A DNA stretch of 64,000 bases. It comes from Candidatus Uhrbacteria bacterium (GTDB taxonomy: Bacteria > Patescibacteriota > Patescibacteriia > UBA9934 > GWF2-40-263). Location: the NCBI GenBank assembly GCA_016188475.1, contig JACPHT010000008.1:34489-98488 (forward strand), given 5' to 3'. The notes under the pieces are model-generated. The model saw nothing but the letters and a program-made list of their open reading frames with translations. It was not told the origin of the DNA and did not search any database. The position numbers were made by a program, and so were the translations under genes. Shown here one piece after another: positions 10,807-36,730 of the stretch (its first letter is position 1; every line of letters starts with the position of its first letter).

Positions 10807-11469
10807 CTATTTATTTCTCCCAAACAACTTTGCGAGCCTTACTGTCAGCATCGCAATTCCGACCTGCCAAAACATACTTATATATTGTACCACAGCGAGC
10901 GGTATTGGGACTTTTTTATATTTTCGACGAAAAGTCAGGCCATGCATCACGACCGATCCAAAGCGCCACTTATGTAACTTACAAAAATAGTTCAACGCGC
11001 TTTCAACCATAAATCCATGTATAAATTCAGGAGGGACACTTTCAAAAACTCGGCGATTCATTGCGCGCTCGCCAGAAATAAGCGGAAGGTGCCGAGAAAT
11101 TGCTGTCCAAAAAATTCCACGATCACGGATCCCAACATTCATCATAAGCCCACCATTTATTACTGGAACCAAAAGCGTTTCAACGTGTTCCTCTGTAAGT
11201 CCAACAAGATCAGCGTCAAAAAAAGCAATAATTGGTGAGTTAGTTTGCGCAACAGCATACATCATAGCTCCTCCTTTTCCGGTTCGTTGTATTTTCAAAA
11301 CTTTTGCACCAGCTTTTTCAGCGACTTCTTTTGTGTTGTCTGTCGATCCATCAGAAATAACAAAAACCTCATCAACAAGTGGCGAAGCAACAAGCGGACG
11401 AATTACATTTTCGATAGTTTGTTCCTCGTTAAAGGCTGGAATGATTGCAGTAACACATGGACGATTCAT
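10807..11469 (-). CDS. Family 2 glycosyltransferase
   Basis: VTAIIPAFNEE...DGSTDNT...FFDADLV, DxD-type GT-A motifs. Confidence 0.7.
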   Translation of the reverse strand: MNRPCVTAIIPAFNEEQTIENVIRPLVASPLVDEVFVISDGSTDNTKEVAEKAGAKVLKIQRTGKGGAMMYAVAQTNSPIIAFFDADLVGLTEEHVETLLVPVINGGLMMNVGIRDRGIFWTAISRHLPLISGERAMNRRVFESVPPEFIHGFMVESALNYFCKLHKWRFGSVVMHGLTFRRKYKKVPIPLAVVQYISMFWQVGIAMLTVRLAKLFGRNK

Positions 11470-11480
11470 ATAGAGTAAGC

Positions 11481-12110
11481 CTACAAACGCTCGTTTTGAA
11501 CTTGACCTTGAAGGGTCTCCCCTTCCTGAAAAAGAATTATCGCTTCTTCATCTCCAGAAAACGTAAGATTCTGCAAAGCGTGAAGTGTTCGAGTGAAATA
11601 TGTCAAACACAATCGTTGCTCTTTTTTCGCAATTTGTCCTAAAACAGAATCACGCTGTGAAAATTCAGATCGCACGCACGCAAGTTTGATTGGAATCATT
11701 TTCACATTCACCAAAGCTCTAAATGCGTCTTCGCGATAAACTTTATCATGTTTATAAAAATAACGCGCATAATGAGCAACATGTTTTGCCCAAAGATAAA
11801 CACGCTCATAAAGCGGATCACGAAAAGTGTGAGCGCGCAAAACTTCTTTCAAAGATTCTTTGGCAAATGTTTTTATTTCTCGATCTGACGAATCTAAACT
11901 AAGAAGATGTTCTGGGCCAATTCTCAATGCCAAATCAGCTTCAAATTCAGCTTCAGTTTCAAGTTGTTCCTGAAGCACGCGTCCTTCCATTTTTAAAATC
12001 GGTCCACGAATTGATGGCGCGTGTTGTTTATATATTTCGTCAAGATCTTCCTCAAGAAGATCAATTTCATTTCTCTCAAACATCCACGGATTTGTTGATG
12101 GAAAAATCAT
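11481..12110 (-). CDS. Hypothetical protein. Its first ~27 codons are duplicated as a remnant at 14717-14797.
   Basis: No recognisable motif. N-terminus MIFPSTNPWMFERNEIDLLEEDLDEIY compares with the remnant MTFPSGNPRMLDRNEINLLEKENDGIY*. Confidence 0.5.
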   Translation of the reverse strand: MIFPSTNPWMFERNEIDLLEEDLDEIYKQHAPSIRGPILKMEGRVLQEQLETEAEFEADLALRIGPEHLLSLDSSDREIKTFAKESLKEVLRAHTFRDPLYERVYLWAKHVAHYARYFYKHDKVYREDAFRALVNVKMIPIKLACVRSEFSQRDSVLGQIAKKEQRLCLTYFTRTLHALQNLTFSGDEEAIILFQEGETLQGQVQNERL

Positions 12111-12215
12111 AAAGTTTTAATGTTTTTAATCTTACCATAAATCCATTATTACGATTGAAATAAATGATTTGAAGGTATATATTCAAGTTGTGGATAACTA
12201 ATTAAAGTTGCAAAT

Positions 12216-14654
12216 ATGCGTAAAAAAAATACCAATGGGTTTGCACATATTGGCTCGAATACGATCTGCAAGAATTTTTTACAACATTCAAAAGACGCGG
12301 TATTCATAGTCAACAAAAAAAATAAAGTCGAATACGCGAGTCCGTCTTGCAAAAAAATCTTTGGGTATTCCGCGAAAGAATTTATTAACGTACCGTGTTT
12401 GACAGAAAAAAAAATTCTTCATCCTTCGTGTAAAATACGTTTTGAAAAATTTTGGAAGGAATACGCGAAAAATAAAACTTTTCCTGTTAAAACTTCGGAA
12501 TGGAGATGGGTAAAAAAAGATGGAAAAGAAATATACACTAAAAATAGTTTTGTAAATTTATCAGAACACGGAAAAAGTGTTGGATTTTTAACAATCGCAC
12601 AAGACATAACTAAAGAAAAAGATAATGTTAAATTAACAGAACAACTTTCTTCTCTTCTAGATTCAATCAGAAAAATAGATCAACTAATTGTAAAAGAAAA
12701 AAATGAAGATATACTTCTGCAAAAAGCATGTGAAATTTTACGAGAAACAAGAGGATATAATTTTGTTTGGATCGGAATCGTCAATGAATATGAAAGAACT
12801 ATTACTCCTGTAGCTAGTTCTGGCCCTAAAATACTTCGTTCAAAACTCAAAAAATTTATTTGGACAAAACAAATGGAATCTTATTGCCATATTGTTCAAG
12901 TAATAAAGAATCGAAAAACCATATCATTAAATAAACTCACCTCTCCTTTTTTAGACATCAATAAATTATGCTCGTGGCATAAAGGTATAATTCAATATGG
13001 CGATATATCCACGATTTTCGTTCCATTAATTAGAGCTAAATTGGTATCAGCGATTATTGTATTAAGTTCTCCCGAGCCTAAAATTTTTAATCTTCATGAA
13101 ATAAAATTGATAAAAGAGCTGGCTAATAACATAGCGTTTGCTCTTCAGTCAATTAAAATAGAAAAAACAGCAAAAGAAAATGAAACGCTTTACACAGCAC
13201 TAGTTGAGCTTTCGCCGGACATTGTGGCAGTGCACAGTCAAGGAAAAATTGTGTTGGTAAACAAAGCCGCTGTAAAATCATTCGGCGCGAAAAACAAAAA
13301 AGAATTGATTGGCAAGCCTGTGATAAATTTTGTACATCCAGAAAGTCGGGCCGATGTCATAAAAAGAATTAAAAAAATGACGACGAAACACAGACAAGCT
13401 CCTCCGATTGAAGAAAGATTCCTTCGCCTTAATGGCACACCGTTTGATGTTGAGACATCGGCTGTACCAATAAAATATAAAGGGAAACCAGCGATTCAAG
13501 TTGTTGCGCATGATATTGGCGCGCGTAAAAAATCTGCGATTGCTTTGGCTCAGGAATCTTCGCTGGCGCAAAACATAATTGATCTGAATCCATACGCTGT
13601 TGCTCTTGGAAGATCAGACGGATATATCTTTAGAATCAACAAAGCATTCGTGCAACTTTTCGGTTCAACTCCGCCGCCAGATTACAACATATTCAAAGAT
13701 CCAATGTTGCTAAAATCCGACTATAAAAAATTATTCAAAAAAATGTTTGAGGGTGAGATAGTCGAGTTTCCAAAAATTTGGTACAACGCTCATAGACTAA
13801 ACCCGCGATTGCCTGACAAAGAAATTTGTATTCGCTCTGTATTTTTTCCAATCAAAGGAGTCAATAAAAAAGTTGAGTATGTGGTAGGAATGCACGAAAA
13901 CATCACGCAAGCGGCGCAAATAGACAAAGCAAAAAGCGAGTTTGTATCCCTGGCTTCGCATCAGCTTAAGACACCGTTGACTGGAATTAAATGGTTCACT
14001 GAACTATTGATGGATCACACAGAACAACAATTAACAAAGAGACAGTCTGAACTCGCAAAAGAAATTTCCATAGCCAATCAACGCATGATAACTCTTGTTA
14101 ATGCGCTGTTGAATGTTTCAAGGATTGAAATGGGGACAATGAAAATAGAGCCAAAAAAAATCAACGCGGAAGAACTAGCAAACGAGTGTGTAAGATTACT
14201 GATGCCTAGAGTCAAAAAAAATAATCAATATCTGACGAAAAATTTTCACCTGACACAAAAATTCGTCATCAACGATCGCAACTTATTGGCGATGATCATT
14301 CAAAATATTTTAGCAAACGCGATTCAATACACAAAATCAAACGGGCAAATTAAGTTTAGCCTTGAGAACAAACAGGATAATCTTTTGCTAACTATAAGCG
14401 ATACTGGAATAGGAATTCCACTCAGCGCTCAAGAAAAAATTTTCACAAAACTTTATAGGGCCGACAACGCGAAAATCTTTTCACCTAACGGAAACGGACT
14501 TGGGTTATATATCGTGAAGTCTGTGCTTGATTACATGAACGGAAAAATTTGGTTTACCTCAACAGTTGGAAAAGGAACAACGTTTTATGTAAGTATCCCA
14601 ATGAAAGGAATCACGAGAAAAAAAGGAACAAAAAATTTGATAATGAATGAATAA
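12216..14654 (+). CDS. PAS-domain sensor histidine kinase (812 aa), AT-richer than neighbours, opposite strand to flanking genes
   Basis: H-box SLASHQLKTPLTGI. N, G1 and G2 boxes (DTGIGIP, GNGLGLYIVK, GKGTTF). Several PAS-like blocks. Confidence 0.8.
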   Translation: MRKKNTNGFAHIGSNTICKNFLQHSKDAVFIVNKKNKVEYASPSCKKIFGYSAKEFINVPCLTEKKILHPSCKIRFEKFWKEYAKNKTFPVKTSEWRWVKKDGKEIYTKNSFVNLSEHGKSVGFLTIAQDITKEKDNVKLTEQLSSLLDSIRKIDQLIVKEKNEDILLQKACEILRETRGYNFVWIGIVNEYERTITPVASSGPKILRSKLKKFIWTKQMESYCHIVQVIKNRKTISLNKLTSPFLDINKLCSWHKGIIQYGDISTIFVPLIRAKLVSAIIVLSSPEPKIFNLHEIKLIKELANNIAFALQSIKIEKTAKENETLYTALVELSPDIVAVHSQGKIVLVNKAAVKSFGAKNKKELIGKPVINFVHPESRADVIKRIKKMTTKHRQAPPIEERFLRLNGTPFDVETSAVPIKYKGKPAIQVVAHDIGARKKSAIALAQESSLAQNIIDLNPYAVALGRSDGYIFRINKAFVQLFGSTPPPDYNIFKDPMLLKSDYKKLFKKMFEGEIVEFPKIWYNAHRLNPRLPDKEICIRSVFFPIKGVNKKVEYVVGMHENITQAAQIDKAKSEFVSLASHQLKTPLTGIKWFTELLMDHTEQQLTKRQSELAKEISIANQRMITLVNALLNVSRIEMGTMKIEPKKINAEELANECVRLLMPRVKKNNQYLTKNFHLTQKFVINDRNLLAMIIQNILANAIQYTKSNGQIKFSLENKQDNLLLTISDTGIGIPLSAQEKIFTKLYRADNAKIFSPNGNGLGLYIVKSVLDYMNGKIWFTSTVGKGTTFYVSIPMKGITRKKGTKNLIMNE

Positions 14655-25337: not shown

Positions 25338-26300
25338 ATGATGTCTGACGCAATCAAAAATTTTCCAAAACAATTTTCTTACAAACCGGTTATCGAGCTG
25401 ACAAAACGGCTTAAAAAATTTAGTCACTACTATGTGATCGGTATGGGTGGATCTCATCTTGCGGCTGATCTTGCTTTGATTTGGAATCCAAAACTTCCAC
25501 TGACTATTGTTTCAGATTATGGACTGCCATCGCGAGTTACAAAAAAAGATTTGGTTATCGCGAGCTCTTATTCTGGAAATACAGAAGAAATAATTGACGG
25601 TCTCAAAATTGCGTTAAAGAAAAAAATACCGGTTGTTGTGATCGCTATTGGTGGAAAACTCATCGCACTCTCAAAAAAACACAATCTCCCATATATCCAA
25701 CTTCCAAACACAGGGATCCAACCACGTTGTGCTCTTGGATTTAGTTTGCGCGCGCTCTTGAAAATAGTTCGAGACGAACGCGGATTGCGAGAAAGTGCAA
25801 AACTTACAAAAACACTTGTCGCAACCAAATACGAAAAAGCCGGCCAAACACTCGCATCAAAACTTACTGGAAAAGTTCCTGTCATATATTCATCACAAAA
25901 CAACCTCGCGATCGCGTATAATTGGAAAATCAAACTCAACGAAACTGGAAAAATTCCTGCTTTTTATAATGTACTGCCGGAACTCAACCACAATGAAATG
26001 AATGGATTTGATGTTCAACCAACAACCAAACAACTTTGCGATAAATTTCATTTTATATTTTTGAAAGATAAAAAAGATCATGCGCGCGTGCAAAAACGCA
26101 TGTCTATTCTTGAACAACTCTATCGACAGCGCGGTTTACCAGTAGAAATCGTTGAACTCCGAGGCAAAACAGCTTTTGAAAAAATGTTCTCTTCGCTTGT
26201 TTTGGCTGATTGGACAGCGGTTTATCTAGCAAAACACTATGGTTTGGAATCTGAACAAGTGCCAATGGTGGAAAAATTCAAGAAATTGATGAATTCATAA
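25338..26300 (+). CDS. Bifunctional phosphoglucose/phosphomannose isomerase (SIS domain, archaeal-type)
   Basis: VIGMGGSHLAADL. SIS fold. Size 320 aa. Confidence 0.65.
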   Translation: MMSDAIKNFPKQFSYKPVIELTKRLKKFSHYYVIGMGGSHLAADLALIWNPKLPLTIVSDYGLPSRVTKKDLVIASSYSGNTEEIIDGLKIALKKKIPVVVIAIGGKLIALSKKHNLPYIQLPNTGIQPRCALGFSLRALLKIVRDERGLRESAKLTKTLVATKYEKAGQTLASKLTGKVPVIYSSQNNLAIAYNWKIKLNETGKIPAFYNVLPELNHNEMNGFDVQPTTKQLCDKFHFIFLKDKKDHARVQKRMSILEQLYRQRGLPVEIVELRGKTAFEKMFSSLVLADWTAVYLAKHYGLESEQVPMVEKFKKLMNS

Positions 26301-26305
26301 AGGGG

Positions 26306-26334
26306 TTGACAAAAAAATCACCTATTGGTAATTT
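26306..26334 (+). promoter_or_regulatory. Sigma70-type promoter TTGACA-N17-TAATTT for the 26419 gene
   Basis: Consensus -35 hexamer with exact 17-nt spacing to the -10 box. SD aaaggaagg before ATG 26419. Confidence 0.55.
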
Positions 26335-26418
26335 CGGGTCGCAAGTCCGGAAATGCCGGACAAGTTTCTCAATTCCAGATCCCCATAGCGAGAGCGAGAG
26401 GGGGAAAGGAAGGTTCAC

Positions 26419-27300
26419 ATGGCTCTGGTGAAGGAAGCGGAGGTCAAGAAAATCTTGACCGCATACAACGGTTCTGTGGACGAAGGATCGCAACTCAACG
26501 TCGACGAGGTCTGTGCGAAGTTGGCCAAGGCAGGCGGAGGTCTCTCGGCGGCGGCTAAGGAGATGTCCTACGAGGATATCGAAGGTGCCGGGATTCCGAA
26601 GGCGGTTGCGCGCGCGATCAGCAAGGTCTGGCGCGGCGACGGCGAGAAGCCGGCAAAGCTCGGGCCGGAAGTCCAGATCGGCGGAGTCGAAGGAACGTTC
26701 GAGGCCCTGGCATTCGCCATGGGCAACATAGGTGCTTTCGGCGACAAGCCGCTCCTCAAGGTCTACGAACCTCTCGGTCGCGACGACGTCACTGGCGAGC
26801 TTCGCAAGCGCTCAGGTGACAAACCGTTCATCGCGTTCAGTGACAAGCAGACGCTGACGGTCGATGTGGAAGCATCGTATGGGAACCTCCAGCTACTCAA
26901 GCAGGGCGTCGAAATCGGCACAAACACAGTGATCAACGGGAAGCTGACAGAGCTCTTCAGGGCTGGAGAGCTTCCTGATCTCGCACTTCCGATCTGCCCG
27001 GTTCACGGGTGCCATCTCATCGGGGATGGTGAGTTCTGCAAGGAATGCAACTTCAGTTGGTCCGGAGTTTCGACCGAGGTTCGCGAGCTTGCGTGGTGTC
27101 ACGTCCAGAACGTGCTCGCGGAAGTTCCTGGCTCGCAGGACGCGAGACTCAAGCAGATCCTCGCCGCTCTCAGCGACGCAAAGGACCAGTACTGGTCCTC
27201 GGCAACGCTCGAGCTCGAGAAACTCAAGGCAACTGGCCAGCCCATCGTGCTGGTCAAGCCGGTCAAGCGTCCCGGACGCTCGACTCCGTCCCGCCGCTAG
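26419..27300 (+). CDS. Hypothetical protein with HhH-like motif (DIEGAGIPKAVARAIS) and C4 zinc ribbon (CPVHGC...CKEC)
   Basis: Motifs seen by eye. GC-rich. First gene of the island. Confidence 0.5.
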   Translation: MALVKEAEVKKILTAYNGSVDEGSQLNVDEVCAKLAKAGGGLSAAAKEMSYEDIEGAGIPKAVARAISKVWRGDGEKPAKLGPEVQIGGVEGTFEALAFAMGNIGAFGDKPLLKVYEPLGRDDVTGELRKRSGDKPFIAFSDKQTLTVDVEASYGNLQLLKQGVEIGTNTVINGKLTELFRAGELPDLALPICPVHGCHLIGDGEFCKECNFSWSGVSTEVRELAWCHVQNVLAEVPGSQDARLKQILAALSDAKDQYWSSATLELEKLKATGQPIVLVKPVKRPGRSTPSRR

Positions 27301-27320
27301 TACGGCAAACTTCTTCACTT

Positions 27321-27350
27321 CCGTGATCCATCTGGGTCACGGATTTTTTG
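27321..27350 (+). terminator. Intrinsic terminator ccgtgatcc-atctgg-gtcacgg + T6
   Basis: Stem plus T-run directly after the 26419 gene stop. Confidence 0.6.
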
Positions 27351-27362
27351 TACACAAAACTC

Positions 27363-27391
27363 TTGACACATTTACGAAAATCACGTAAAAA
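27363..27391 (+). promoter_or_regulatory. Sigma70-type promoter TTGACA-N17-TAAAAA
   Basis: Same architecture as the promoters at 26306, 31006 and 33998. Confidence 0.55.
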
Positions 27392-27452
27392 ACCTTGTCC
27401 TGCGCCTTCTAATCCTGAAGGATGCTGGAAGTACAATAAAAGTGAGGAAAAC

Positions 27453-28619
27453 ATGTCTCTCTCAAGCCTTAAGTCAGAGATCATCTTCCCCTACTTTCAA
27501 TCAGTTGGGGACCTAGATCCAAATTCCGCGACCGATCGTGTTGCGACGGAAATTCTCAAATCCGGGGCCGGTGTCAAAGCAGTTGCCGCGTCAATCCAAG
27601 CTGAAGACCTTATTGGAACAGAGCTTCCGCTTGCAATCAGAAAAGCGCTAGCAATTCGCATCAGAGAAGACGCAATCGCGACAGTCGAAGTTACAACAGG
27701 CGACACGCGAAAGAATCTTCGTCCGGGATCGTTCGATGATGTGATCGGCCACGCAGACTTCAAACGTCTCATGTCAAACGCGATCACTGCCGCGCGCAAG
27801 CAAGGCGTTCCTCTTCGCCATATTCTCTTGAACGGTCCGCGCGGACTTGGCAAAACCACTCTCGCTCTTGTGATCGCAAACGAGCTAAAAGCAAAAGCGC
27901 GTTTGCTCGTTGGATCGCAATTACGAACACCGGTCGACATCACGAACGAGGTTCTGCGATGGGAAAAAGGGTCGGTCGTTTTCATTGACGAGATCCACGG
28001 CATGAGCCGTGCCGCTCAAGAAACGCTTTACAGCGTGATGGAAGACGGCCGCTTGCCAATTACCGAAAAAAGAAAAGGACACCAGACAAAGACGAGCGTT
28101 CCAGCGCCATCAATCACGATCATTGGCGCGACAACAAATCCGTCCAAGTTGCTGGAGCCTTTCCGAAATCGGTTCGGGTCAAAGTATGAACTCGGTTTCT
28201 ACTCGAACGACGAGATGAAAAAGATCGGACAACGATCAGCATCCATTCTCGGTCTGACGATCGAACCATCGGCTGTTCAAAAGCTTGTTGCGCACTGTCG
28301 CGACAATCCACGCACTCTCAACGAGTTCCTGCTCCAACTGAACGATCTGTCCATTGCTCAATCGTTATTGTCCGTCACAGTCGAACACGTTTCAGACCTT
28401 TTGAAACTCAACGGCTATGATGAACAGGGTTTGCGTCCTGAAGAACGTCGCTATGTGGAAGCGCTCAAAACGATCGGTGGAAGTGGCAGTCTCAAAACCA
28501 TAGCCGAGACGCTTGACATGGAAGTTTCAGAAGTCGAAGGAACGATCGAGCGATGGTTGGTGCGTAAAGGAATGATTCGCCGGACTCCAAAAGGCCGGCA
28601 GATCATAGAAAGGAGCTGA
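27453..28619 (+). CDS. RuvB-family AAA+ ATPase paralog with ~50-aa N-terminal extension
   Basis: Collinear with RuvB over its whole length: LRP...IGH...LLNGPRGLGKTTLALVIANEL, FIDEIHGMS, LYSVMEDG, IGATTNPS, PFRNRFG, C-terminal winged helix RTPKGRQI. SD gagga before ATG 27453. Confidence 0.7.
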   Translation: MSLSSLKSEIIFPYFQSVGDLDPNSATDRVATEILKSGAGVKAVAASIQAEDLIGTELPLAIRKALAIRIREDAIATVEVTTGDTRKNLRPGSFDDVIGHADFKRLMSNAITAARKQGVPLRHILLNGPRGLGKTTLALVIANELKAKARLLVGSQLRTPVDITNEVLRWEKGSVVFIDEIHGMSRAAQETLYSVMEDGRLPITEKRKGHQTKTSVPAPSITIIGATTNPSKLLEPFRNRFGSKYELGFYSNDEMKKIGQRSASILGLTIEPSAVQKLVAHCRDNPRTLNEFLLQLNDLSIAQSLLSVTVEHVSDLLKLNGYDEQGLRPEERRYVEALKTIGGSGSLKTIAETLDMEVSEVEGTIERWLVRKGMIRRTPKGRQIIERS

Positions 28620-28622
28620 GAA

Positions 28623-29765
28623 ATGGACTTTCCTGTTATTGTTCTAAAAACTGGAAAAGAGTCAATCCCGGACGGCCCTGCCGTAATCATAATCGCGAAA
28701 AACGGCAAGTTTCTCTTGAAGCGACTTGGAATAGTCGAGGCCGCGGTTCCGTACACAGACCAGATTTCAGGACTTGCCGAATACGAGACTTGGGCAGAGC
28801 TCAATGTTGAGAAAATTCCGTTCGAGATCTTCATCCAGGTCTTTCACTTCATGCGAACGATCTACAACAACAAGAAGACGGAATGCAATGTGATTCTGTT
28901 CTATCATCAAAAGGAAAAACAGTGGGCTGTTGTGGTTCCACCACAGATTGTCTCGCACAGCAGTGTGCACTATCAGGATGGTATCGCGGGAGCGAAAGAC
29001 GGATGGATCAAAGTTGGAACACTCCACAGTCACTGCGACTTTTCAGCAGGACATAGCGGTGGCGATCACAGAGACGAAGAGCACTTCGACGGAATCCACA
29101 TCACGCTCGGTCACGTTGACAAAGACGAACCCACATTGAGTGTAAGTCTTGTCGTCAACGGCATGCGGTTCATGAAAACTCCGCAAGAATACATTGCTGG
29201 AGTCAAACGTGTTGAAGAAAAAGAAATGGTCCAGGAATACGAAACAAAGTGGGTTGATGGCGATGATACCGCTGACGAAAGTCACGCAGAGCAAGAAGAG
29301 TCTTTGGTGACTAGCATGTGCACATTAGTGACTAGATTTCTACCGAAGTTCGGTGGTGGGGAGATCGGCGGTACTAGTAACACATATGTCAAACCCAGTT
29401 GGCCTACCAAGGTCTACAAGTACAGACCCCAAAAGCGAATCGAAGTTCCAACCAAAATGGTGGAACGCACAGTCTCCAGACTTGTGTTCGACTTTCCTGA
29501 AGGAAAAAAGGTGGAGGATTATGAATTTCCGCAGGAATGGTTGGACAATGTGAAGACATCGTACGAGTTGCACAAGATGGAACATCCTGTTCGTCCAAGA
29601 CGGAGAAGAAAATTCCGTGATGCGGGCGTTTCAAAAAGTAACGACCATCAACAAGAGTCAATAAACAATGAGGAAGAAGAAACAGCTTACACATGTATGA
29701 CCGACGATGAACTTGCGGAGATAATCTCAAGGCATCAACGTGGATGCCAAGAAGGAGAAGAATGA
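28623..29765 (+). CDS. JAB/MPN (JAMM) metallopeptidase-domain protein
   Basis: Exact JAMM motif HSHCDFSAGHSGGD (HxHx7Sx2D) at 29025-29066, with an upstream Glu. SD ggag before the ATG. Only a 3-nt gap after the RuvB-like stop. Confidence 0.7.
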   Translation: MDFPVIVLKTGKESIPDGPAVIIIAKNGKFLLKRLGIVEAAVPYTDQISGLAEYETWAELNVEKIPFEIFIQVFHFMRTIYNNKKTECNVILFYHQKEKQWAVVVPPQIVSHSSVHYQDGIAGAKDGWIKVGTLHSHCDFSAGHSGGDHRDEEHFDGIHITLGHVDKDEPTLSVSLVVNGMRFMKTPQEYIAGVKRVEEKEMVQEYETKWVDGDDTADESHAEQEESLVTSMCTLVTRFLPKFGGGEIGGTSNTYVKPSWPTKVYKYRPQKRIEVPTKMVERTVSRLVFDFPEGKKVEDYEFPQEWLDNVKTSYELHKMEHPVRPRRRRKFRDAGVSKSNDHQQESINNEEEETAYTCMTDDELAEIISRHQRGCQEGEE

Positions 29766-29766
29766 G

Positions 29767-30534
29767 ATGAAGGAACTGAACATCGTGGTAGTCGGAATAG
29801 GAGGTGTTGGAAGCGCTCTTGTTCCAAAGCTCTGTCGCTATTGTCAGCACATCAAGCCCCAGGTTCCTGTCAGTCTGGTTCTGATCGACGGAGACTTGTA
29901 CGAACAGAACAACGCGAATCGACAGTCGTTTCATCGGTTCGGAAACAAAGCAGAGGTTACGGTTGAAGCTCTCGCGCCTCAATTCGACCGAATTCAACTC
30001 TCGGCAATAGCCGAGTTCCTCAAACCCGACAACATTGACTTCATCATCGCTGAAGGCTCGATCGTTTTCCTGTGCGTTGACAACAACACATCAAGAAAGA
30101 TGGTCGATGATTTCACACACAAGTTCAAGAACATTGTCGTCATCTGCGGCGGAAACGACATGACTGACGGAAACGTACAGATCTACATCCGTCGCAAAGG
30201 CAAGGACATAACAGCATCACTCGCTGACATTCATCCAGAAATCGCTTCGCCACAAGGCAAGGCTCCGTATCAAATGAACTGCGAAGAGCTAGCGATGGCA
30301 TCATCTCCACAGCTTTTCTTCGCCAACGATTTGGTCAGCGCTCTGATGTGTCTGGTCTTCTACCAGATAATCGAAGTCAAGGACTTTCTTGACAAACCTA
30401 GGTTCGGTGAGCTTTACTTTGACATGCTACTAGGTCGCGTTGAATCTGTTGTTCGAAATCCTGTTGTCAAAGTGGCACAGGTTGATCGAAAAAAGTGTAA
30501 GGGCAAGTCCAAGCCAGCAAAGAAAGGAAGGTAG
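29767..30534 (+). CDS. E1-like ubiquitin-activating enzyme of the minimal ThiF/MoeB type. The track's alternative GTG start is 29740.
   Basis: Rossmann VVVGIGGVGS. DGDLYEQNNANRQ (DxDxxExxNxNRQ) at 29887-29925. CVDNNTSR. Catalytic-Cys loop NCEELAMASSPQ. SD ggagaag. Start is 1 nt after the JAB stop. Confidence 0.7.
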   Translation: MKELNIVVVGIGGVGSALVPKLCRYCQHIKPQVPVSLVLIDGDLYEQNNANRQSFHRFGNKAEVTVEALAPQFDRIQLSAIAEFLKPDNIDFIIAEGSIVFLCVDNNTSRKMVDDFTHKFKNIVVICGGNDMTDGNVQIYIRRKGKDITASLADIHPEIASPQGKAPYQMNCEELAMASSPQLFFANDLVSALMCLVFYQIIEVKDFLDKPRFGELYFDMLLGRVESVVRNPVVKVAQVDRKKCKGKSKPAKKGR

Positions 30535-30536
30535 TG

Positions 30537-30953
30537 ATGGCAAGGAGATACTCGGAGCAGGAACTTCTCGGCAAGACCAAGTTGAGTCTGCGAGAGGTCT
30601 GCAATGAAATCGGGCTCGAGTTCAACAATAGCATGAGCATCGACGAACTGGTCAAGGCAATCATGAAGCGTCAAGGTGGTGCGCAGAACGCAGCGCCTGC
30701 AGAAGACGACGGAGACACAACGGACAACGAAAACGAAGGCGGTTCTGTAACTGTGACCTGTGGCGCTTCGAGCCAGGTCCTGGAAGTCGCTGGCAAGTCT
30801 ATCGCGTACGTTCGCAGGGAATACGCGTCCGTTTTCAACATCGGTCGCGAAAGCAAGGCAATGCTCAACGGAGCCGAGGAGAACGACGAAAGTCACATTC
30901 TCGAAGACGGGGACAACCTCGAGTTCGTCAAGAAGAGCGGAGACAAAGCATAA
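30537..30953 (+). CDS. Rho_N-like helix-hairpin domain fused to a ThiS/MoaD-like beta-grasp ubiquitin-like domain, ending ...LEDGDNLEFVKKSG-DKA
   Basis: N-terminus SEQELLGKTKLSLREVCNEIGLEF...SIDELVKAIMKRQ, a Rho_N pattern. C-terminus has the beta-grasp DGD...EFV...SG pattern with a 3-residue tail. Its ATG sits 2 nt after the E1 stop TAG (the alternative GTG start at 30534 overlaps it). Confidence 0.55.
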   Translation: MARRYSEQELLGKTKLSLREVCNEIGLEFNNSMSIDELVKAIMKRQGGAQNAAPAEDDGDTTDNENEGGSVTVTCGASSQVLEVAGKSIAYVRREYASVFNIGRESKAMLNGAEENDESHILEDGDNLEFVKKSGDKA

Positions 30954-30976
30954 ACTAGTCTTCCGCTGGTAACTTA

Positions 30977-31005
30977 CCCACGACAAACTGTCGTGGGATT
31001 TTTTA
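30977..31005 (+). terminator. Intrinsic terminator cccacgaca-aac-tgtcgtggg + T-run
   Basis: 9-bp perfect stem with T-run, seen directly. Confidence 0.7.
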
Positions 31006-31034
31006 TTGACAAAAAATTACTTTTGATGTAAAAA
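31006..31034 (+). promoter_or_regulatory. Sigma70-type promoter TTGACA-N17-TAAAAA
   Basis: Same module as the other island promoters. Confidence 0.55.
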
Positions 31035-31081
31035 ATCTCGTCTGCCAAGAATGGCAGTGCTCATTACAATGAGGTTACAAC

Positions 31082-33790
31082 ATGAGTATTTGGGAAGAAA
31101 CCGCAATCCATCTCACTCCAGACGGCCTTGCCGAACTTCGCACTGACCGTGTGAAATCAACACCAAAAGGAACTCCACTCAGACTTAAAGTGGCACGCCG
31201 AAGTTTTGCGATAACAGACTTGCTCGGCAAACAGAGCGAACAGGAAATCAATCACCGCTTTTGTCGTTTCGTATACACAAAAGGAAATGTTACATGGTAC
31301 GTGGTCGAAGAGCCTCCGTGCATACGAACGGTAACATGGTCATTCTTAAATGAAGATTGGAAAAAAATCCAAGATCGAGGATTGATCCGCAAGTTGGGCC
31401 TGGATCCAAAAACAGATTCAAAGCGAACACGATTTCAATTCGCGTTCCCGTACACGATTTTTCTTCTGCCAATCTCGCCATATGATGGCGGGGTTTCACT
31501 CGGGTTGGGACAGATAGCGCTCCGCGCAGAACCACTACGCAGTCTTCAGGACGACCTATTCTGGGCTCCGTTTTCAAACCAAAGAAGTACAAACGGCGAT
31601 ATGTGTCTTGGAGATAAGAGACCAAGCAAAGCTAAGGCTCCGTGCGAGCTGATTGATCAGCTTATCGCTCACTGGTGGCTAAGCAATTTCAATGATCACT
31701 GGGTCGAGCGATACATAACGTATCAGGAACGAATCCCTGAAATGGCAACGCCATGGGAATGGGAATACTACAGCAAAAGGCGCCCATCATGGGTTCTTGA
31801 AGCTGATTGGATTCGAATGGGAATGACAGTCGAAGAAAAACTCGTCGTTGGCAAAAGTAATAAAACCACTATATTCGCGGATCTTGCGAGAATAGCCAAG
31901 TCTGCTCCAGAAGTGATTCCTGGATCTGACTGGAAAAAAACTAAAAAAGACGAAGCTCGCGCAACAAAAGCGACACTTATGCCTTACGGACAGACAGTTC
32001 AGGTTGGTGACGAGTTTTACTGTACAAACTCTGTGTTAGATTTCCAAGCTGGCAAAACATACAATGTAAATAATATAGAAAACTGCTCATGCGGCGATCC
32101 AGGACACACAGCCTTGTACTTTCAAGGTGGTGGATGTTTGAAGGCCTGTGATGTTCATCATTACTTTCAACGCGCTGACAAATTTCCAACACAACTGTTT
32201 CAGATTGGGTCGCATCAGATCTGGACCGGAACAAAATTCGTCCTCGTGAACAATGATGACATTACTGGAATTCGCACTGGCGCATACATGATCTCGGCGT
32301 TGATGGTAGACCAAGAAGGTGATGTCAAAATCAGAGTCTCTGGACTTTCTGGCTGGATTTACATAACGCACGAACAAACTCTCTTGCCATCTATCAGACT
32401 GTTCATTCCTGAACTCAAGGACAACACGTTTACATACGGCGAGTCCACATTGAAAGTCGGGACAACTGTCAATGTGGTAAACGGCGCAACGAAGATCCAA
32501 AATAAACTGTTACGTGTTGAATCAATAACTCAAGAGGATCAGTCATACTTCGTGACATTCGAAGGACGACAGGAACGATTTTCTCTCTTTTCGAGCGGAA
32601 CCCTTCAGATGAATTGGGAGACGACCGTTTACGAATTCTCTGAACAGCGCGTCGGATTCGGAAAAAAAATTCTTGATTTGACCACTCACACACATATTCT
32701 TGTAAGAGTGGCTGAACAACCGCTTCGCAACGGGACAATATACGAAGCACTTCACTTCGTTCATCCTGAAGGCAAGCACCCACTTGACGTTGACCTTTTA
32801 ATCGCAAACGGAAACGAAACAATTCCGGTTGTTCGCGATTCAAAATGGGTCTTCCCTGAAGCATACACTCCTGTCACGGTCATCTACCAAGATGACGCGT
32901 TGACACTTAAGTCAGGCGAAGTCTTGGTTTGCCAAATAACCGATGTTCCAGGAATCAAAAAAAACGAAGAGGTGACCATACTGTGCTTTATGGAGTCATC
33001 AATTGAAAATCGAAGGCTGATCATAGTCCTGACTGATGGACGAACGATTTGCCTTACGCAAGATACATTGAAGTACTTTGTCCGTAAGGCAAAACCAACA
33101 TGGACCGTGGAAGAGGTAAGACGACTTCCTGAAATATGGTTTAACACAAGCAAAGCGTTTGAGAAACCTCAATCGCTTAACACACTTCCAAAACCGCTCG
33201 TCAGAGCAATCTTGAAGAGAAAAAGCCTAAAGGGCTTTGGTCAGTTTGTTTCTAAGGACTTCAACGGCAACGCTCTTCATATCGGAGACATTGTGTGTAT
33301 TCGCTATATTGCGTTTTTCCAAGGAAACGGTGGTATAGAATCGCAGTACAGTAATAAGTACGCGCTGGTTGTTCATTCATATCTGAATCCAGCACAAAGA
33401 TACTATTACTCATACCTCTTCCTTGGAGTTCAAACTGCTGAAGGAAGAGTTAACATCAGAAGCGACTCTGCTGAATTTGAGAAAGTGGATCCTGAATACC
33501 AAGGTCAAGAAGCCAGAAGACAAATGGCTATCAACATAAACGATTATCTTCAAGTGTGCACCTTCGATGATAGTTTCACTACTATGATCGAAGAAGGGTC
33601 GCTTGTCAGGATTCGTCATGATGTAAATCCAAAGTACGGCCGCGGAAACGTGCAAGCAAACGAAGTCGGAAGAGTTCGTCGACTTATTGAAAACGAGGAG
33701 GTCGTTGTTGACTTCCCCGCAGAAACTGAATGGATCGGACTGATCAACGAGATTGAAATCTGTCCATTTGAGCCTAGCCAACATGTTTAG
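31082..33790 (+). CDS. Large hypothetical protein A (902 aa), paralog of 34082-36682
   Basis: Many conserved blocks with paralog B (PPCIRTV..W, TRFxxAFPYTIF, WEWE, LLPSI..IP.LKDNTFT.G, TILCF). No known motif recognised. Confidence 0.6.
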   Translation: MSIWEETAIHLTPDGLAELRTDRVKSTPKGTPLRLKVARRSFAITDLLGKQSEQEINHRFCRFVYTKGNVTWYVVEEPPCIRTVTWSFLNEDWKKIQDRGLIRKLGLDPKTDSKRTRFQFAFPYTIFLLPISPYDGGVSLGLGQIALRAEPLRSLQDDLFWAPFSNQRSTNGDMCLGDKRPSKAKAPCELIDQLIAHWWLSNFNDHWVERYITYQERIPEMATPWEWEYYSKRRPSWVLEADWIRMGMTVEEKLVVGKSNKTTIFADLARIAKSAPEVIPGSDWKKTKKDEARATKATLMPYGQTVQVGDEFYCTNSVLDFQAGKTYNVNNIENCSCGDPGHTALYFQGGGCLKACDVHHYFQRADKFPTQLFQIGSHQIWTGTKFVLVNNDDITGIRTGAYMISALMVDQEGDVKIRVSGLSGWIYITHEQTLLPSIRLFIPELKDNTFTYGESTLKVGTTVNVVNGATKIQNKLLRVESITQEDQSYFVTFEGRQERFSLFSSGTLQMNWETTVYEFSEQRVGFGKKILDLTTHTHILVRVAEQPLRNGTIYEALHFVHPEGKHPLDVDLLIANGNETIPVVRDSKWVFPEAYTPVTVIYQDDALTLKSGEVLVCQITDVPGIKKNEEVTILCFMESSIENRRLIIVLTDGRTICLTQDTLKYFVRKAKPTWTVEEVRRLPEIWFNTSKAFEKPQSLNTLPKPLVRAILKRKSLKGFGQFVSKDFNGNALHIGDIVCIRYIAFFQGNGGIESQYSNKYALVVHSYLNPAQRYYYSYLFLGVQTAEGRVNIRSDSAEFEKVDPEYQGQEARRQMAININDYLQVCTFDDSFTTMIEEGSLVRIRHDVNPKYGRGNVQANEVGRVRRLIENEEVVVDFPAETEWIGLINEIEICPFEPSQHV

Positions 33791-33817
33791 CTAAGACCGC
33801 AATGTCAGCCCAAATTC

Positions 33818-33958
33818 ATGATGGGCAAAGCGCAACACGGCGAGCATGGTGTCTTCAAAGAACTTCTCAATGACGGCGTGGTTGTCGTGGACTTTCCAAA
33901 CCATCAAGGGTGGTTTGGAGACATAAACGACATCCAACCAGCCGGTACAACGAAATAG
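33818..33958 (+). CDS. Small ORF (46 aa), MMGKAQHGEHGVFKELLNDGVVVVDFPNHQGWFGDINDIQPAGTTK
   Basis: Resembles the C-terminal block of protein A (GRVRRLIENEEVVVDFPAETEWIGLINEIEI). No clear SD. Confidence 0.3.
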   Translation: MMGKAQHGEHGVFKELLNDGVVVVDFPNHQGWFGDINDIQPAGTTK

Positions 33959-33972
33959 GTCATGTTCTCTGT

Positions 33973-33996
33973 CCTGCCTAAAAGGCAGGATTTTTT
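33973..33996 (+). terminator. Intrinsic terminator cctgcc-taaaa-ggcagg + T-run
   Basis: Seen directly. Confidence 0.65.
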
Positions 33997-33997
33997 C

Positions 33998-34026
33998 TTG
34001 ACAAAAAAACAAAAAAGCGGTAAAAG
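33998..34026 (+). promoter_or_regulatory. Sigma70-type promoter TTGACA-N17-TAAAAG
   Basis: Same module. SD aggaaag before ATG 34082. Confidence 0.55.
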
Positions 34027-34081
34027 AATAGGCCGCATTTTGCGGTCGCCCTTTACAAAAACCTTTCAAAGGAAAGTGAAA

Positions 34082-36682
34082 ATGGCTGGAAAACTTATCG
34101 TCTTGAGTGACAAGGAAACCGCAACGCTCACAGATGACAGTGGAAGTTCAACTGTTCCGCTGTCTGCAATAGCCACAAGCGATTCAAAAGGTACTCTTCT
34201 TCCAACCGATTGTCGGATTCACATTACCAACGGTCTGGCAAGTGTGTTTGTTATCGAACAACAGCCATGCGTTCGTGATGTGAACTGGAACACAAGTAAA
34301 GATGAATGGAAAAATCTCATCTCTCGCGGAGCAAAATCATTCGCGCAAGTGAAAGGAAACGAAACAAAAACACGGTTCCGTCTCGCCTTTCCATACACAA
34401 TTTTCATTGTTCGAATGGAAGGAATATGTGTTACGAGCATACGCGTTTTCTTCCGTAGCCACACGATCTCAACACCGACTGATTATCTTCAGCAAGCAGG
34501 GCTTCTAAAAGACGACACTCTGGTTGTTGAAGATCAAAAACAGATTCTTCATCATGGCATGACACAAGCCAGTACTGTTAACGTGGCTGTTGAATACTTC
34601 TGGCATCAAACACTCGGAACAGGTGAACTGATCGGAACTGTTCATCCAGACGTTCCTGAAGTGTCAAGTGTTTGGGAATGGGAATCGGCTTCGCGCAAGC
34701 ATCAAGACTGGATTCTCAAAGCACAGTGGGAAAAAACCGATCTCAACTTGAAAACCGCATCGCAAGCAATGTTGCAGTTACCTGATGCGAAAGATGGTGA
34801 AGACCAGACTTTCGCCACAGTCGCCGCGCGAATCCGTCATAGTGTGCCAAACAAGAAAACGCGCGACCACGAATTGATCGAGAGTCCATGTGTTTCCATA
34901 ATGCTTGGAACAACTCGTTTACGACAAGGCGATACGATCGTTTCTAGCAAACGCCAGTTCGGATGCAAAAAAGACAAGCAATACCTTGTGCTTGGATTCT
35001 ACGAACGAACAAGCAAAGGCGTTGTGCACGCAAGACTTGATGGAGTTGCCAATCCTGTTCCGATTGGAACTTCCAAAGGCTTGGTTGATTTCAAGCTCTT
35101 ACAACCTGAACGAGAAGTCGTGAGTGAGATAACGTACAATGGAGTCGTGTTCAAAACAGGAACAAAATTCTGTGTCTCATCAGGCGAAGACATAGGTTTG
35201 TTAGCAACAGACATTGAATACATAATAAAGAAACTCGAGGTTGATTCTGAGGGAGATGCCAGAGTCAAGATTGCTGACTTAAATACTTGGTTCTATATCA
35301 CATACGATGGCGGAAAACTTCTGCCGTCAATATATCAAAACATTCCGAGTCTCAAAGACAATACTTTCACTTTCGGCAAGCAGAAAATGAGTGTTGGGAC
35401 GTTTGTGGAAATCACTGGAAGCGCGGCAAAAGTTCAAGACACTCTTCTCCGAGTTGCTTCGATCGCTCAAGAGCGCGAAGCATACATTGCCACGTTTGAA
35501 GGACATGAAGAAAAAATCACCATTTACAAAAATGGTGAGCGTCAAATCGATTGGAACACAGTAACATACGAATTCTCGGACAAGCGAGTTGTGCTTGGCA
35601 ACAAAGTTCTGGATCTGACTGATTGCGAATCTATGCTTATAACAATATCAGAAGATTCTCAAGAAGTCGGAAAAATGCACAAAGTGAAAGGCCTTGTTCA
35701 TCCAACAGATGGACACAGGTTTGATGTGAACCTCGTTGTTGACGATAAGCAGATCCCAGTGATCAAACATTCAAACTGGGTCTTCAGAATCAAGCACGAA
35801 CAAGTATCTGACAGATATGATGATGGAGCTTTGACTCTGCAATCAGGTGAAGTCCTCATATGCGTGGATACAATCACTGGTCTGACCAAGGACGAGGAGC
35901 TGACTATTCTGTGTTTTGGCAAAAACAAAACAACCAAAGATCTCACTGACATCATTTTCTCTGATGGACGAGCGATAAACATGACTCAAGCGTCTCTCAA
36001 GCTATTCTCTCGCAAAGATGGGAAGCCGTGGAGTGAGAAAAAAATTGCAAAACTCCCGCAAGGTTCTCCTCCAACGACTCGAGTGCAACAAGGTGAACGC
36101 TGTAGAGTAACGACTAATAACATCAACGGTGAAATCGGAACTGTAACTGACAAATCGTACGACGATAGGTTTGTAAAATTCGACAATCCTCAACCAAACG
36201 GTCGTGGACCGACAATTACAGAAGGCTGGTTTCTGTATAAATACCTTGAACGTCTTGATAAGTCCAAAGTCACATGGTGTTTCTCCAAAAATGCTAGAGT
36301 TGAAAAACGAAGCGATGGGACTTTAATCCAACTTCCAACAGAGCTGATAATAGAGCTCACAACCATTCAACGAATACCCACAAAACTGACGGATTTGTTT
36401 GGGAACTCTTTGTCTGTTGGCGACATCGTCGTGCCAATTTATCAAGGATTCACTAAAGAATGTCCTAGACGAGTAATCGGAATTCCGATGCTAGTCGTTC
36501 ACTACAGTTCAAGCGGTTCTCCATTCTTGTTTCTCTGGGCTGGATCTACACACAAACCTGGAGTGTTAAGCCGCGACTGTCGTGATTTCAATACAATAAC
36601 AATAGCCTTCAAAGATCGTCTTAACGAACTCTACGTCAACCCGCCGAAAGATTGTGAAAAAATCACTTTCATCGAAGCCTAA
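34082..36682 (+). CDS. Large hypothetical protein B (~866 aa from ATG 34082). The track start 33962 lies upstream of the promoter and is rejected.
   Basis: Paralog of A. Confidence 0.6.
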   Translation: MAGKLIVLSDKETATLTDDSGSSTVPLSAIATSDSKGTLLPTDCRIHITNGLASVFVIEQQPCVRDVNWNTSKDEWKNLISRGAKSFAQVKGNETKTRFRLAFPYTIFIVRMEGICVTSIRVFFRSHTISTPTDYLQQAGLLKDDTLVVEDQKQILHHGMTQASTVNVAVEYFWHQTLGTGELIGTVHPDVPEVSSVWEWESASRKHQDWILKAQWEKTDLNLKTASQAMLQLPDAKDGEDQTFATVAARIRHSVPNKKTRDHELIESPCVSIMLGTTRLRQGDTIVSSKRQFGCKKDKQYLVLGFYERTSKGVVHARLDGVANPVPIGTSKGLVDFKLLQPEREVVSEITYNGVVFKTGTKFCVSSGEDIGLLATDIEYIIKKLEVDSEGDARVKIADLNTWFYITYDGGKLLPSIYQNIPSLKDNTFTFGKQKMSVGTFVEITGSAAKVQDTLLRVASIAQEREAYIATFEGHEEKITIYKNGERQIDWNTVTYEFSDKRVVLGNKVLDLTDCESMLITISEDSQEVGKMHKVKGLVHPTDGHRFDVNLVVDDKQIPVIKHSNWVFRIKHEQVSDRYDDGALTLQSGEVLICVDTITGLTKDEELTILCFGKNKTTKDLTDIIFSDGRAINMTQASLKLFSRKDGKPWSEKKIAKLPQGSPPTTRVQQGERCRVTTNNINGEIGTVTDKSYDDRFVKFDNPQPNGRGPTITEGWFLYKYLERLDKSKVTWCFSKNARVEKRSDGTLIQLPTELIIELTTIQRIPTKLTDLFGNSLSVGDIVVPIYQGFTKECPRRVIGIPMLVVHYSSSGSPFLFLWAGSTHKPGVLSRDCRDFNTITIAFKDRLNELYVNPPKDCEKITFIEA

Positions 36683-36694
36683 CCATTCTTTCTT

Positions 36695-36730
36695 ATCGCC
36701 GTCGTGCACCAGCACCGGCGATTTTTTATT
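36695..36730 (+). terminator. Intrinsic terminator atcgccg-...-cggcgat + T6
   Basis: Seen directly. End of the island. Confidence 0.65.

Follow-up and report, generated by a model that had tools for sequence, protein, structure and literature searches.

In a 64,000-nucleotide stretch of a Candidatus Uhrbacteria chromosome (contig JACPHT010000008.1 of assembly GCA_016188475.1, positions 34,489 to 98,488; hereafter the window), one gene is predicted to encode a small ubiquitin-like protein (Ubl) in which a Rho_N/HeH-like N-terminal domain is joined through an acidic linker to a C-terminal beta-grasp. The gene stands in an island of seven, together with genes for a JAB/JAMM metallopeptidase, a ThiF-type activating enzyme (E1), a RuvB-like ATPase, a 293-residue protein and two large paralogous proteins, here called big1 and big2 (Table 1). 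Comparison with relatives in viruses, plasmids and other Uhrbacteria points to a probable conjugation cassette, in which the N-terminal domain of big1 would serve as the conjugating enzyme (E2).

Table 1. Genes, predicted domains and other features of the island, by position in the window
Feature	Position	Strand	Description or basis
293-aa protein	26419..27300	+	No family match
RuvB-like AAA+ ATPase	27348..28619	+	N-terminal extension of ~120 aa; RuvB_N 2e-37, RuvB_C 2.4e-13; first gene of the RuvB-like ATPase-JAB-E1-Ubl unit
JAB/JAMM metallopeptidase, 380 aa	28623..29765	+	JAB-N-like N-terminal region; JAMM motif; PRTRC_A match
ThiF-type E1, 264 aa	29740..30534	+	Pfam ThiF 2e-18; MoeB (1jw9) at 1e-4; aligned with 15 viral homologues
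Ubl gene, 138 aa	30537..30953	+	Predicted Rho_N-like domain, acidic linker and beta-grasp
Rho_N/HeH-like three-helix N-domain, aa 1-47	30537..30677	+	Structure prediction, Rho_N matches of relatives, alignments with Rho
Acidic disordered linker, aa 48-68	30678..30740	+	pLDDT <50; length and sequence differ among relatives
ThiS/MoaD-type beta-grasp, aa 69-138	30741..30950	+	Structure prediction, Foldseek, ThiS and TGS matches of relatives
C-terminal motif S134-G135-D136-K137-A138	30936..30950	+	Family signature [SA]-G-x-K-[G/A], from the alignment of relatives
Hairpin and T-run	30977..30997	+	Terminator-like; directly 3' of the Ubl gene
big1, 902 aa	31082..33790	+	E2-like N-domain (~aa 55-255, nt 31244-31846), then a long beta-rich repeat region
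In-frame continuation of big1, last repeat	33818..33958	+	Present in 958-aa orthologues; cut off by the TAG at 33788-33790
big2, 906 aa	33962..36682	+	big1 paralogue without the Asn and Cys of the E2-like motif

The Ubl gene and its domain architecture

The Ubl open reading frame (ORF) begins at an ATG just 3' of a GGAAGG sequence, with the E1 stop codon three bases 5' of its start, and closes with a TAA at 30951-30953; its translation carries exactly the strings quoted in a preliminary description of the locus. Five close homologues, 42-100% identical, occur on other contigs or assemblies with the gene order kept. A profile built from these five retrieved 864 cluster representatives at E ≤ 1e-3 from 1.84 billion proteins, including 148 at E ≤ 1e-10; the counts of C-termini and domains given below refer to about 150 relatives (149 for the Pfam counts). 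By these comparisons the ORF is a real and conserved gene. The window Ubl itself had no significant match in Pfam, PHROGs, PADLOC or NCBIfam, and a tblastn search of 50,697 phage records with the window Ubl and a typical relative found nothing; it was the E1, not the Ubl, that served as the marker locating the cultured phages described below.

A structure predicted by AlphaFold2 (AF2) from a five-sequence alignment, with a mean predicted local distance difference test (pLDDT) score of 76, divides the Ubl into three parts. The N-terminal part forms three helices (residues 7-11, 15-24 and 35-46; pLDDT 74-86), and shares with the Rho N-terminal bundle and the SAP and LEM (HeH) modules both a three-helix build of ~45 residues and the pattern L-x-x-L...G-[LI]...[IL]-[IV]-x-x-I-[LM]. 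Pfam gave no Rho_N match above threshold for the window Ubl; among the 149 relatives, 55 matched Rho_N (best 8e-18) and 13 matched SAP, and the viral orthologue in locus L004 matched Rho_N at 1.1e-9. The family profile also matched the N-terminus of a Rho in the PDB (3l0o_A, residues 10-53; E 3e-4), and hhalign placed window residues 8-49 on residues 4-45 of E. coli Rho, a match that is weak by itself (E 0.021). In Rho the helix bundle is joined to an OB fold and an ATPase, and it is the OB fold, which comes after the bundle, that binds RNA; in the window protein the bundle is joined to a Ubl instead.

Residues 47-68, which follow the helices, are acidic and were modelled at pLDDT <50. The remainder is predicted to form a beta-beta-alpha-beta-beta fold over residues 71-131 (strands 71-75, 78-82, 107-110 and 127-131, helix 89-100; pLDDT 80-89), for which the top Foldseek matches in the PDB were the ubiquilin UBL, SUMO, mycobacterial MoaD, Caldiarchaeum ubiquitin and ubiquitin (probability ~1.0, E 3e-3 to 4e-2). 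ThiS was matched by 41 of the 149 relatives (best 1.3e-18) and TGS by 33; the window Ubl fell below the Pfam threshold for ThiS (PF02597), with only TGS at 0.096. We looked for a C-terminal Gly-Gly in the window Ubl and found none, the protein ending in S-G-D-K-A.

The preliminary description had proposed a Rho-type module in the first ~45 residues, then an acidic linker, then a beta-grasp in the last ~70 residues. Judged by transitive homology and fold prediction, this reading of the domains is right: the structure prediction returned the three helices, the low-confidence acidic segment and a beta-grasp that resembles ubiquitin, SUMO and MoaD, and over a third of the relatives (55 of 149) match Rho_N. 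The fusion had further been called unfamiliar from described systems. No paper describing a Rho_N-Ubl fusion was found in the literature, but the fusion is common in metagenomic phages and hence not unique to the window.

E1 and JAB partners

The E1 has the GxGGxG motif, the arginine finger motif DGDxxExxNxxRQ and the VDN motif, and a cysteine, Cys181 (in QMNCEE; nt 30280-30282), that is invariant across all homologues. Scans for a rhodanese domain and a CxxC zinc site in the E1 found neither. Its nearest NCBIfam model is the ThiF protein of PRTRC, the 'ParB-related, ThiF-related cassette' (TIGR03734-03741), matched over nearly the full length at 6.5e-11, with 42 bits against a cutoff of 144.75. 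The JAB protein carries a full JAMM motif, HxH-x7-S-xx-D (HSHCDFSAGHSGGD, residues 135-148, nt 29025-29066), and the conserved upstream Glu, both kept in 15 viral homologues. Here too the nearest NCBIfam model is from PRTRC: PRTRC_A matches residues 23-182 at 3.5e-8, with 33 bits against a cutoff of 101.8. The pairing of the Ubl with the adjacent JAB and E1, already proposed in the preliminary description, is upheld by the complete JAMM motif, the ThiF match at 2e-18 and the conserved linkage of the genes. Neither PADLOC nor sequence matching found a Bil component in the window; PADLOC gave only weak matches to the Cap2 E1.

A beta-grasp of ThiS/MoaD type beside an E1 whose best matches are ThiF and MoeB raises the possibility that the Ubl is a sulfur carrier like ThiS, MoaD, CysO, QbsE or TtuB, with a C-terminal thiocarboxylate used for thio-modification and the Rho_N-like domain delivering it to a substrate, for example phage or host nucleic acid. 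Triads of ThiS, E1 and JAB are a known sulfur-transfer arrangement (Iyer 2006, row 4), and the CysO-Mec+-MoeZ and QbsE-QbsD-QbsC triads share with the window a ThiS/MoaD-type beta-grasp and a ThiF/MoeB-like E1, along with a JAB for trimming C-terminal residues; a radical-SAM gene, moreover, lies upstream of the cassette in L004. The window, in contrast to these triads, has no GG end, and neither a rhodanese, a cysteine desulfurase or a sulfur-acceptor enzyme in the island nor sulfur-metabolism neighbours; the radical-SAM gene is absent from it. The cassette core instead includes an E2-like protein with conserved Asn and Cys, described next, and relatives of the Ubl are made as poly-Ubl precursors. 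We regard a sulfur carrier as very improbable.

The E2-like domain of big1

No family was matched directly by big1 or big2. The first ~270 residues of both are conserved between the Uhrbacteria and viral homologues. With a 241-residue stand-alone version from phage WH1 included, P79, R82, P123, P151, L159, N166 and C175 (nt 31604-31606 in big1) are invariant, the last two across 13 sequences. The last two lie in the motif L-[FY]-x-x-P-F-x-N-x(6-8)-C-x-G, which resembles the HPN...C active site of E2 enzymes and whose Asn...Cys pair is also found in Prok-E2_D proteins. The decisive link came from profile comparison: hhalign aligned the big1 N-domain with a PRTRC_B/Prok-E2_D alignment at a probability of 94.6% (E 6.5e-8) over 149 columns, with the Asn and the Cys aligned. 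Against three human E2s, hhalign placed FSN...C-L-G on HPN...C-L-D with a probability of 1.1%, which is not significant.

The AF2 model of the N-domain (pLDDT 63, core ~80) has a beta-meander, a loop with N166 and C175, and three helices, a topology that agrees with that of E2 enzymes. The alignment behind this model was limited, word-index searches having given five close relatives even with a profile. Foldseek matches to the model were apparently unrelated, and a search of PDB sequences with the big-protein profile found nothing. From the profile comparison we identify the N-domain of big1 as a probable E2-like domain of the Prok-E2_D/PRTRC-B type. The preliminary description, which was right about the JAB, E1 and Ubl, had missed both this component and the kinship with PRTRC/Prok_Ub. 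In big2, the loss of the Asn and Cys points to a probable inactive copy (UEV/RWD-like) or a substrate.

Relationship to PRTRC and other known systems

Taken together, the window cassette appears to be a remote relative, or sister, of the PRTRC cassette (Prok_Ub, Prok-E2_D, Prok-JAB and ThiF). Canonical PRTRC cassettes on Hydrogenophaga and Robbsia plasmids have the order ParB-E-C-F-B-A-ThiF, and in Pfam their B proteins match Prok-E2_D (3.9e-53), their C proteins Prok_Ub (1e-22 to 1e-24) and their A proteins DUF2016 and Prok-JAB. The Robbsia PRTRC_C protein, 69 residues long, ends in ...FLRAAGAKG, and in that of Hydrogenophaga AAGAKG is followed by a 71-residue extension. Both kinds of cassette appear to share a core of four parts: the E2-like protein (B), the JAB and its additional N-domain (A), the ThiF-type E1, which is short, and the Ubl, a small beta-grasp protein (C). 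They further share the gene order B-A-ThiF, the E2 motif PFxN-x6-8-C-x-G, a Ubl end of A/S-G-x-K-G (with Ala for the final Gly in the window) and ties to mobile elements and DNA-handling genes.

The differences are nevertheless considerable. The window proteins score far below the curated cutoffs or are unmatched; Prok_Ub (PF14454) and PRTRC_C (TIGR03738) do not match the window Ubl, and only one of the 149 relatives matches PRTRC_C at 1e-3. A search for ParB and for PRTRC E and F in the island (26.4-36.7 kb) found none of them. In the window the Ubl gene comes after the E1 gene, its product carries the Rho_N-like domain and acidic linker and ends in Ala, the E2-like domain is fused to ~650 residues of beta-rich repeats and has a probably inactive paralogue, and the RuvB-like ATPase and the 293-residue protein are added. 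The settings also differ, being a candidate phyla radiation (CPR) chromosome or jumbo phages for the window type and proteobacterial plasmids and integrative and conjugative elements for PRTRC.

A prokaryotic cassette of E1, E2-like protein, JAB and Ubl of the Prok_Ub type is already known computationally, having been predicted in 2006: the fourth operon type of Iyer, Burroughs and Aravind (2006; row 6d) brings together a JAB that has an additional N-domain, an E1, an E2-like protein and a small Ubl whose C-terminal Gly is conserved, and by composition PRTRC is probably this operon type. The literature yielded no reported function for PRTRC. Among systems with known roles, the closest in plan is BilABCD (types I and II), a bacterial ubiquitination-like defence operon (Chambers et al., PMC10557695; Hör et al., bioRxiv 10.1101/2023.09.04.556158) that likewise encodes an E1, an E2, a JAB deubiquitinase (DUB) and a Ubl, and whose JAB both matures and deconjugates the Ubl. 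The Bil E1, however, is a large enzyme that combines an inactive and an active adenylation domain with a Cys domain and a zinc site, whereas the window E1 has 264 residues, a single ThiF domain and no CxxC; and in the Bil Ubl the tails beyond the conserved Gly are not conserved, in contrast to the G-x-K-G of the window family. Bil and Bub Ubls can have several beta-grasps and diverse N-terminal domains (PMC11601603), reported as disordered, coiled-coil or DUF1508, whereas that of the window Ubl is Rho_N-like. Eukaryotic polyubiquitin precursors offer another likeness, since Ubl relatives occur as 2-5 exact head-to-tail copies with a short tail, although the window gene is single-copy, the unit shows no sequence relationship to ubiquitin, and copies are joined at GxKG where polyubiquitin has RGG.

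The cassette in phages and plasmids

In IMG/VR, a pattern scan turned up a relative of the Ubl on 15 viral contigs of 24-340 kb, and phmmer identified homologues of the JAB, E1 and Ubl in 14 of the 15. The order in most of these loci is E2-like big protein, JAB, E1, Ubl. In L004, the neighbours are genes for an SbcC-like protein, a radical-SAM enzyme, an HNH protein, a second ThiF-like protein and the beta' and beta subunits of RNA polymerase, and gene sizes are similar in the other viral loci. Those sizes had suggested a phage head-tail morphogenesis module, which is ruled out by the SbcC-like, radical-SAM, HNH, ThiF-like and RNA polymerase neighbours.

Parts of the cassette also occur in three cultured Bacillus jumbo phages, vB_BceM_WH1, Edson and vB_BauM_KLEB27-3, as a stand-alone E2-like protein (gp214), a JAB (gp215), an E1 (gp216) and, nearby, gp211. 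In WH1, gp211 (L018 2676-3575) consists of five tandem 57-residue repeats of the Prok_Ub type, joined as ...QAGTKG|ALRVV..., and it bridges the families: it matches the window-Ubl profile at 1.9e-14, and both Prok_Ub (94.5 bits) and PRTRC_C (73.6 bits) above their cutoffs. On large Firmicutes plasmids, genes for Prok-E2_D, JAB and ThiF lie beside those for Rad52, DnaN, a helicase, a Pol III subunit and SSB.

The depositors annotated gp211 as a 'virion structural protein'; if this annotation rests on proteomics, the Ubl or its conjugates would be present in virions. The annotation also fits a non-covalent adaptor, in which the beta-grasp (TGS/UBX-like) and the Rho_N-like domain would only bind nucleic acid or the big proteins and the E1 and JAB would serve some other function. 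Weak matches to TGS, an RNA-associated beta-grasp, point the same way, and conjugation in this cassette is deduced from sequence. Such an adaptor would not account for the exposed C-terminal G-x-K-G, which is strictly conserved and ends the protein, or for the close linkage, in many cases through stop and start codons that overlap, to the E1, JAB and E2-like genes in phages, plasmids and Uhrbacteria; we consider it improbable, about as much so as a sulfur carrier.

The literature yielded no description of this cassette variant, and none of poly-Ubl genes with GxKG junctions, of the giant E2_D fusion with its probably inactive paralogue, of the jumbo-phage setting beside RNA polymerase genes or of a CPR chromosomal form that includes a RuvB-like ATPase; the cassette goes unmentioned in both the NAD/ADPr virus survey and the 0305phi8-36 genome paper. 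PRTRC/Prok_Ub thus gains a large, mostly phage-borne sister family, with the 864 Ubl representatives noted above.

Two side observations concern the viral loci. In L004, the second ThiF-like gene (11390-12262), which has a shorter match, lies between the Ubl gene and the RNA polymerase beta' and beta genes, and might encode an inactive partner subunit of the E1. Genes for ~285 residues occupy the matching position in L007, L008, L009, L011, L013 and L016, and the window has no such gene.

The C-terminal motif and the reactive end

Across the 150 relatives, the Ubl ends in [LV]-E-F-[VIL]-K-x-[SA]-G-x-K-[G/A], with Gly at the last position in 123, Ala in 20, Ser in four, Gln in two and Leu in one. 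At the position of K137, 149 sequences have Lys without exception, and conservation of G135 is 90% or more. The protein stops exactly at the motif end in 90 of the 150 (60%) and one residue, often Cys, beyond it in 34; the others continue, always after the motif, into unrelated tails (e.g. VQRINIIV), a Lys-rich extension, a GNAT domain or the next Ubl copy. In the 15 viral orthologues the end is G-x-K-G throughout. In several relatives the beta-grasp is repeated exactly head to tail, up to fourfold, and a short tail closes the series; the copies are joined as ...GxKG|[AS]V... (for example ...EAGKKG|AVEIASG...), and in one viral gene the whole Rho_N and beta-grasp unit is duplicated across ...AGRKG|A.... 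Finally, hhalign aligned the end of the window Ubl (...LEFVKKSGDKA) with that of PRTRC_C (...WSFIRAAGAKG), with A138 on the final Gly.

The preliminary description had taken the last three residues, DKA, to be extra residues that the JAB would have to remove to expose a terminal Gly. DKA does come after an S-G pair, but 'extra' was an interpretation rather than an observation. Because the C-terminus is conserved across ~150 relatives, DKA is better read as the x-K-[G/A] part of a fixed motif than as an arbitrary propeptide. A disposable tail is not supported as it was described, given the fixed [SA]-G-x-K-[G/A] end at which 90 of 150 relatives stop, and the proposed removal step is doubtful. 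In terms of the alignment, A138 occupies the position of the family's terminal Gly, and the window Ubl has no tail beyond the motif.

We therefore favour, at somewhat better than an even chance, the explanation that the Ubl is the modifier of a conjugation cassette of the PRTRC/Prok_Ub type, with A138 as its reactive end and no need for maturation. The main competitor, which we hold to be possible yet clearly less probable, is a pro-Ubl in which G135 is the reactive residue and D-K-A (x-K-G in the family) is a conserved propeptide that the JAB must remove before the E1 can act. Several observations favour the competitor and weigh against A138. A C-terminal Ala, or the Leu, Gln or Ser of the nearest relatives, is unusual for an E1 substrate, and in the clade closest to the Uhrbacteria the end is not fixed but drifts (A, L, Q+SS, Q+T and S+G). 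V131 closes the last strand of the AF2 model. Counted from there, A138 would leave a tail of seven residues where ubiquitin has four, whereas G135 is at the same distance as ubiquitin's G76, four residues, and comes after a small residue, as the terminal Gly of GG and AG ends does. There is also a precedent in E. aridi BilA (PMC10557695): one C-terminal Ala that follows the conserved Gly prevents adenylation, and the JAB DUB takes this Ala off. In the present family a JAB always co-occurs, even with Ubls that lack a tail beyond the motif.

On the other side, one would not normally expect a discarded tail to keep to a length of three, with a Lys that never varies and with G or A at the end in 95% of cases; 60% of the proteins end directly after x-K-[G/A], with variable extensions starting only beyond it; and the canonical Prok_Ub/PRTRC_C proteins and the curated models end in ...AGAKG. 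Of the two residues, A138 is accordingly the one we think likelier to react. Conjugation within a PRTRC-type cassette faces further reservations, whichever residue reacts. Membership in PRTRC was reached through intermediates and profile-profile comparison, because the window Ubl and the big1 N-domain match no curated model; nucleic-acid binding by the Rho_N-like domain is something we infer from its likeness to Rho; and we found no biochemistry on record for the window cassette or for PRTRC.

Some relatives are of unusual build, namely P0126, in which a RimI-like GNAT acetyltransferase is fused after the GxKG motif, P0031, with a Lys/Ala-rich extension after it, P0025 and P0057. In two giant relatives (1373 and 4869 residues), the Ubl profile matches 15-17 stretches.

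Proposed mechanism and implications

The steps that we propose follow the established chemistry of E1, E2 and JAMM enzymes. With A138 taken as the reactive end and no maturation needed, since it occupies the terminal-Gly position, the E1 would adenylate the C-terminal carboxylate of the Ubl and take the Ubl as a thioester on Cys181, from which it would be handed to Cys175 of the E2-like domain and joined to lysines of target proteins. The JAB would remove the Ubl from its targets again and, in relatives with tails or tandem copies, would also free mature Ubl units. The linkage of the four genes for E2-like protein, JAB, E1 and Ubl is conserved across very different replicons.

More speculatively, the Rho_N-like module may hold the tag or its target at nucleic acid or nucleic-acid machinery, an idea that fits the company the cassette keeps (ParB, Rad52, DnaN, helicases, SbcC, phage RNA polymerase and the RuvB-like ATPase). 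Equally speculative are the suggestions that the C-terminal repeat region of big1 selects substrates and that the RuvB-like ATPase and the 293-residue protein couple the system to DNA or remodel conjugates. Candidate roles are control of the DNA transactions of mobile elements or, in Uhrbacteria, a domesticated defence.

A broader proposal, which we put forward only tentatively, is that jumbo phages, large plasmids and Uhrbacteria share a complete E1-E2-DUB-Ubl machine whose tag, made from polyubiquitin-like precursors and provided with its own HeH anchor, covalently marks or tethers proteins on DNA or RNA beside a phage RNA polymerase or a RuvB-like motor, perhaps including virion proteins. 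If so, this would be a phage-side ubiquitin-like system, and the Rho_N-Ubl fusion would be a new class of chromatin-directed modifier in prokaryotes. Bacterial Ubl conjugation has been shown so far only for defence, in Bil and type II cyclic-oligonucleotide-based antiphage signalling systems (CBASS), and for the Bub pathway. Were conjugation confirmed here, phages and plasmids would be seen to turn ubiquitin-like tagging to their own ends, a reduced CPR bacterium would prove to have retained a system of this sort at one constant chromosomal location, and it would be clear that a Ubl can come with a nucleic-acid-directed module of its own. If its last residue is the reactive one, trypsin would cut a tag with the fixed G-x-K-G end down to a single residue on the target lysines.

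The Uhrbacteria island and the big proteins

The full set of genes (293-residue protein, RuvB-like ATPase, JAB, E1, Ubl, big1 and big2) is carried by four further Uhrbacteria loci, one of which has no called JAB gene, and the cassette lies between a PGI-like gene and a copper ATPase gene wherever the contigs extend that far. Every Uhrbacteria version has the RuvB-like ATPase, and the viral loci lack it. The protein contains the full set of three RuvB domains, yet scores below the RuvB equivalog cutoffs. The seven-gene island (26000-36700) has a G+C content of 0.45-0.57 against ~0.40 in its flanks, and no integrase, tRNA or flanking-repeat signature was found at it. Because its G+C content exceeds that of the flanks, we read the island as an old acquisition from a mobile element that has since been retained by selection.

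Hairpins at 27320-27343, 30977-30997 and 33971-33991 divide the island into four units, comprising the gene for the 293-residue protein, the RuvB-like ATPase-JAB-E1-Ubl genes, big1 and big2. The 293-residue protein and the extension of the RuvB-like ATPase have an N-terminal segment of ~58 residues in common (31% identity, E 1e-5).

The TAG that ends big1 stands where orthologues, which are 948-962 residues long, have Glu (HV*LRP in the window and HVELKP in the orthologues), and the orphaned fragment 3' of it matches big1 at 3.9e-6; a nonsense mutation of recent date, an error in sequencing or readthrough might each explain the TAG. The C-terminal part of big1 (33500-33958) is made of ~55-residue repeats with the pattern G-x-[LV]-V-R-I...VVDFP...W-[IF]-G, which matched no Pfam family and look like small beta-barrel domains of the SH3 or MIB/HERC2 kind. 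For big2, the called start lies 5' of the terminator-like hairpin at 33971-33991, and we therefore place its start, probably, at the ATG at 34082 (MAGKLIV...).

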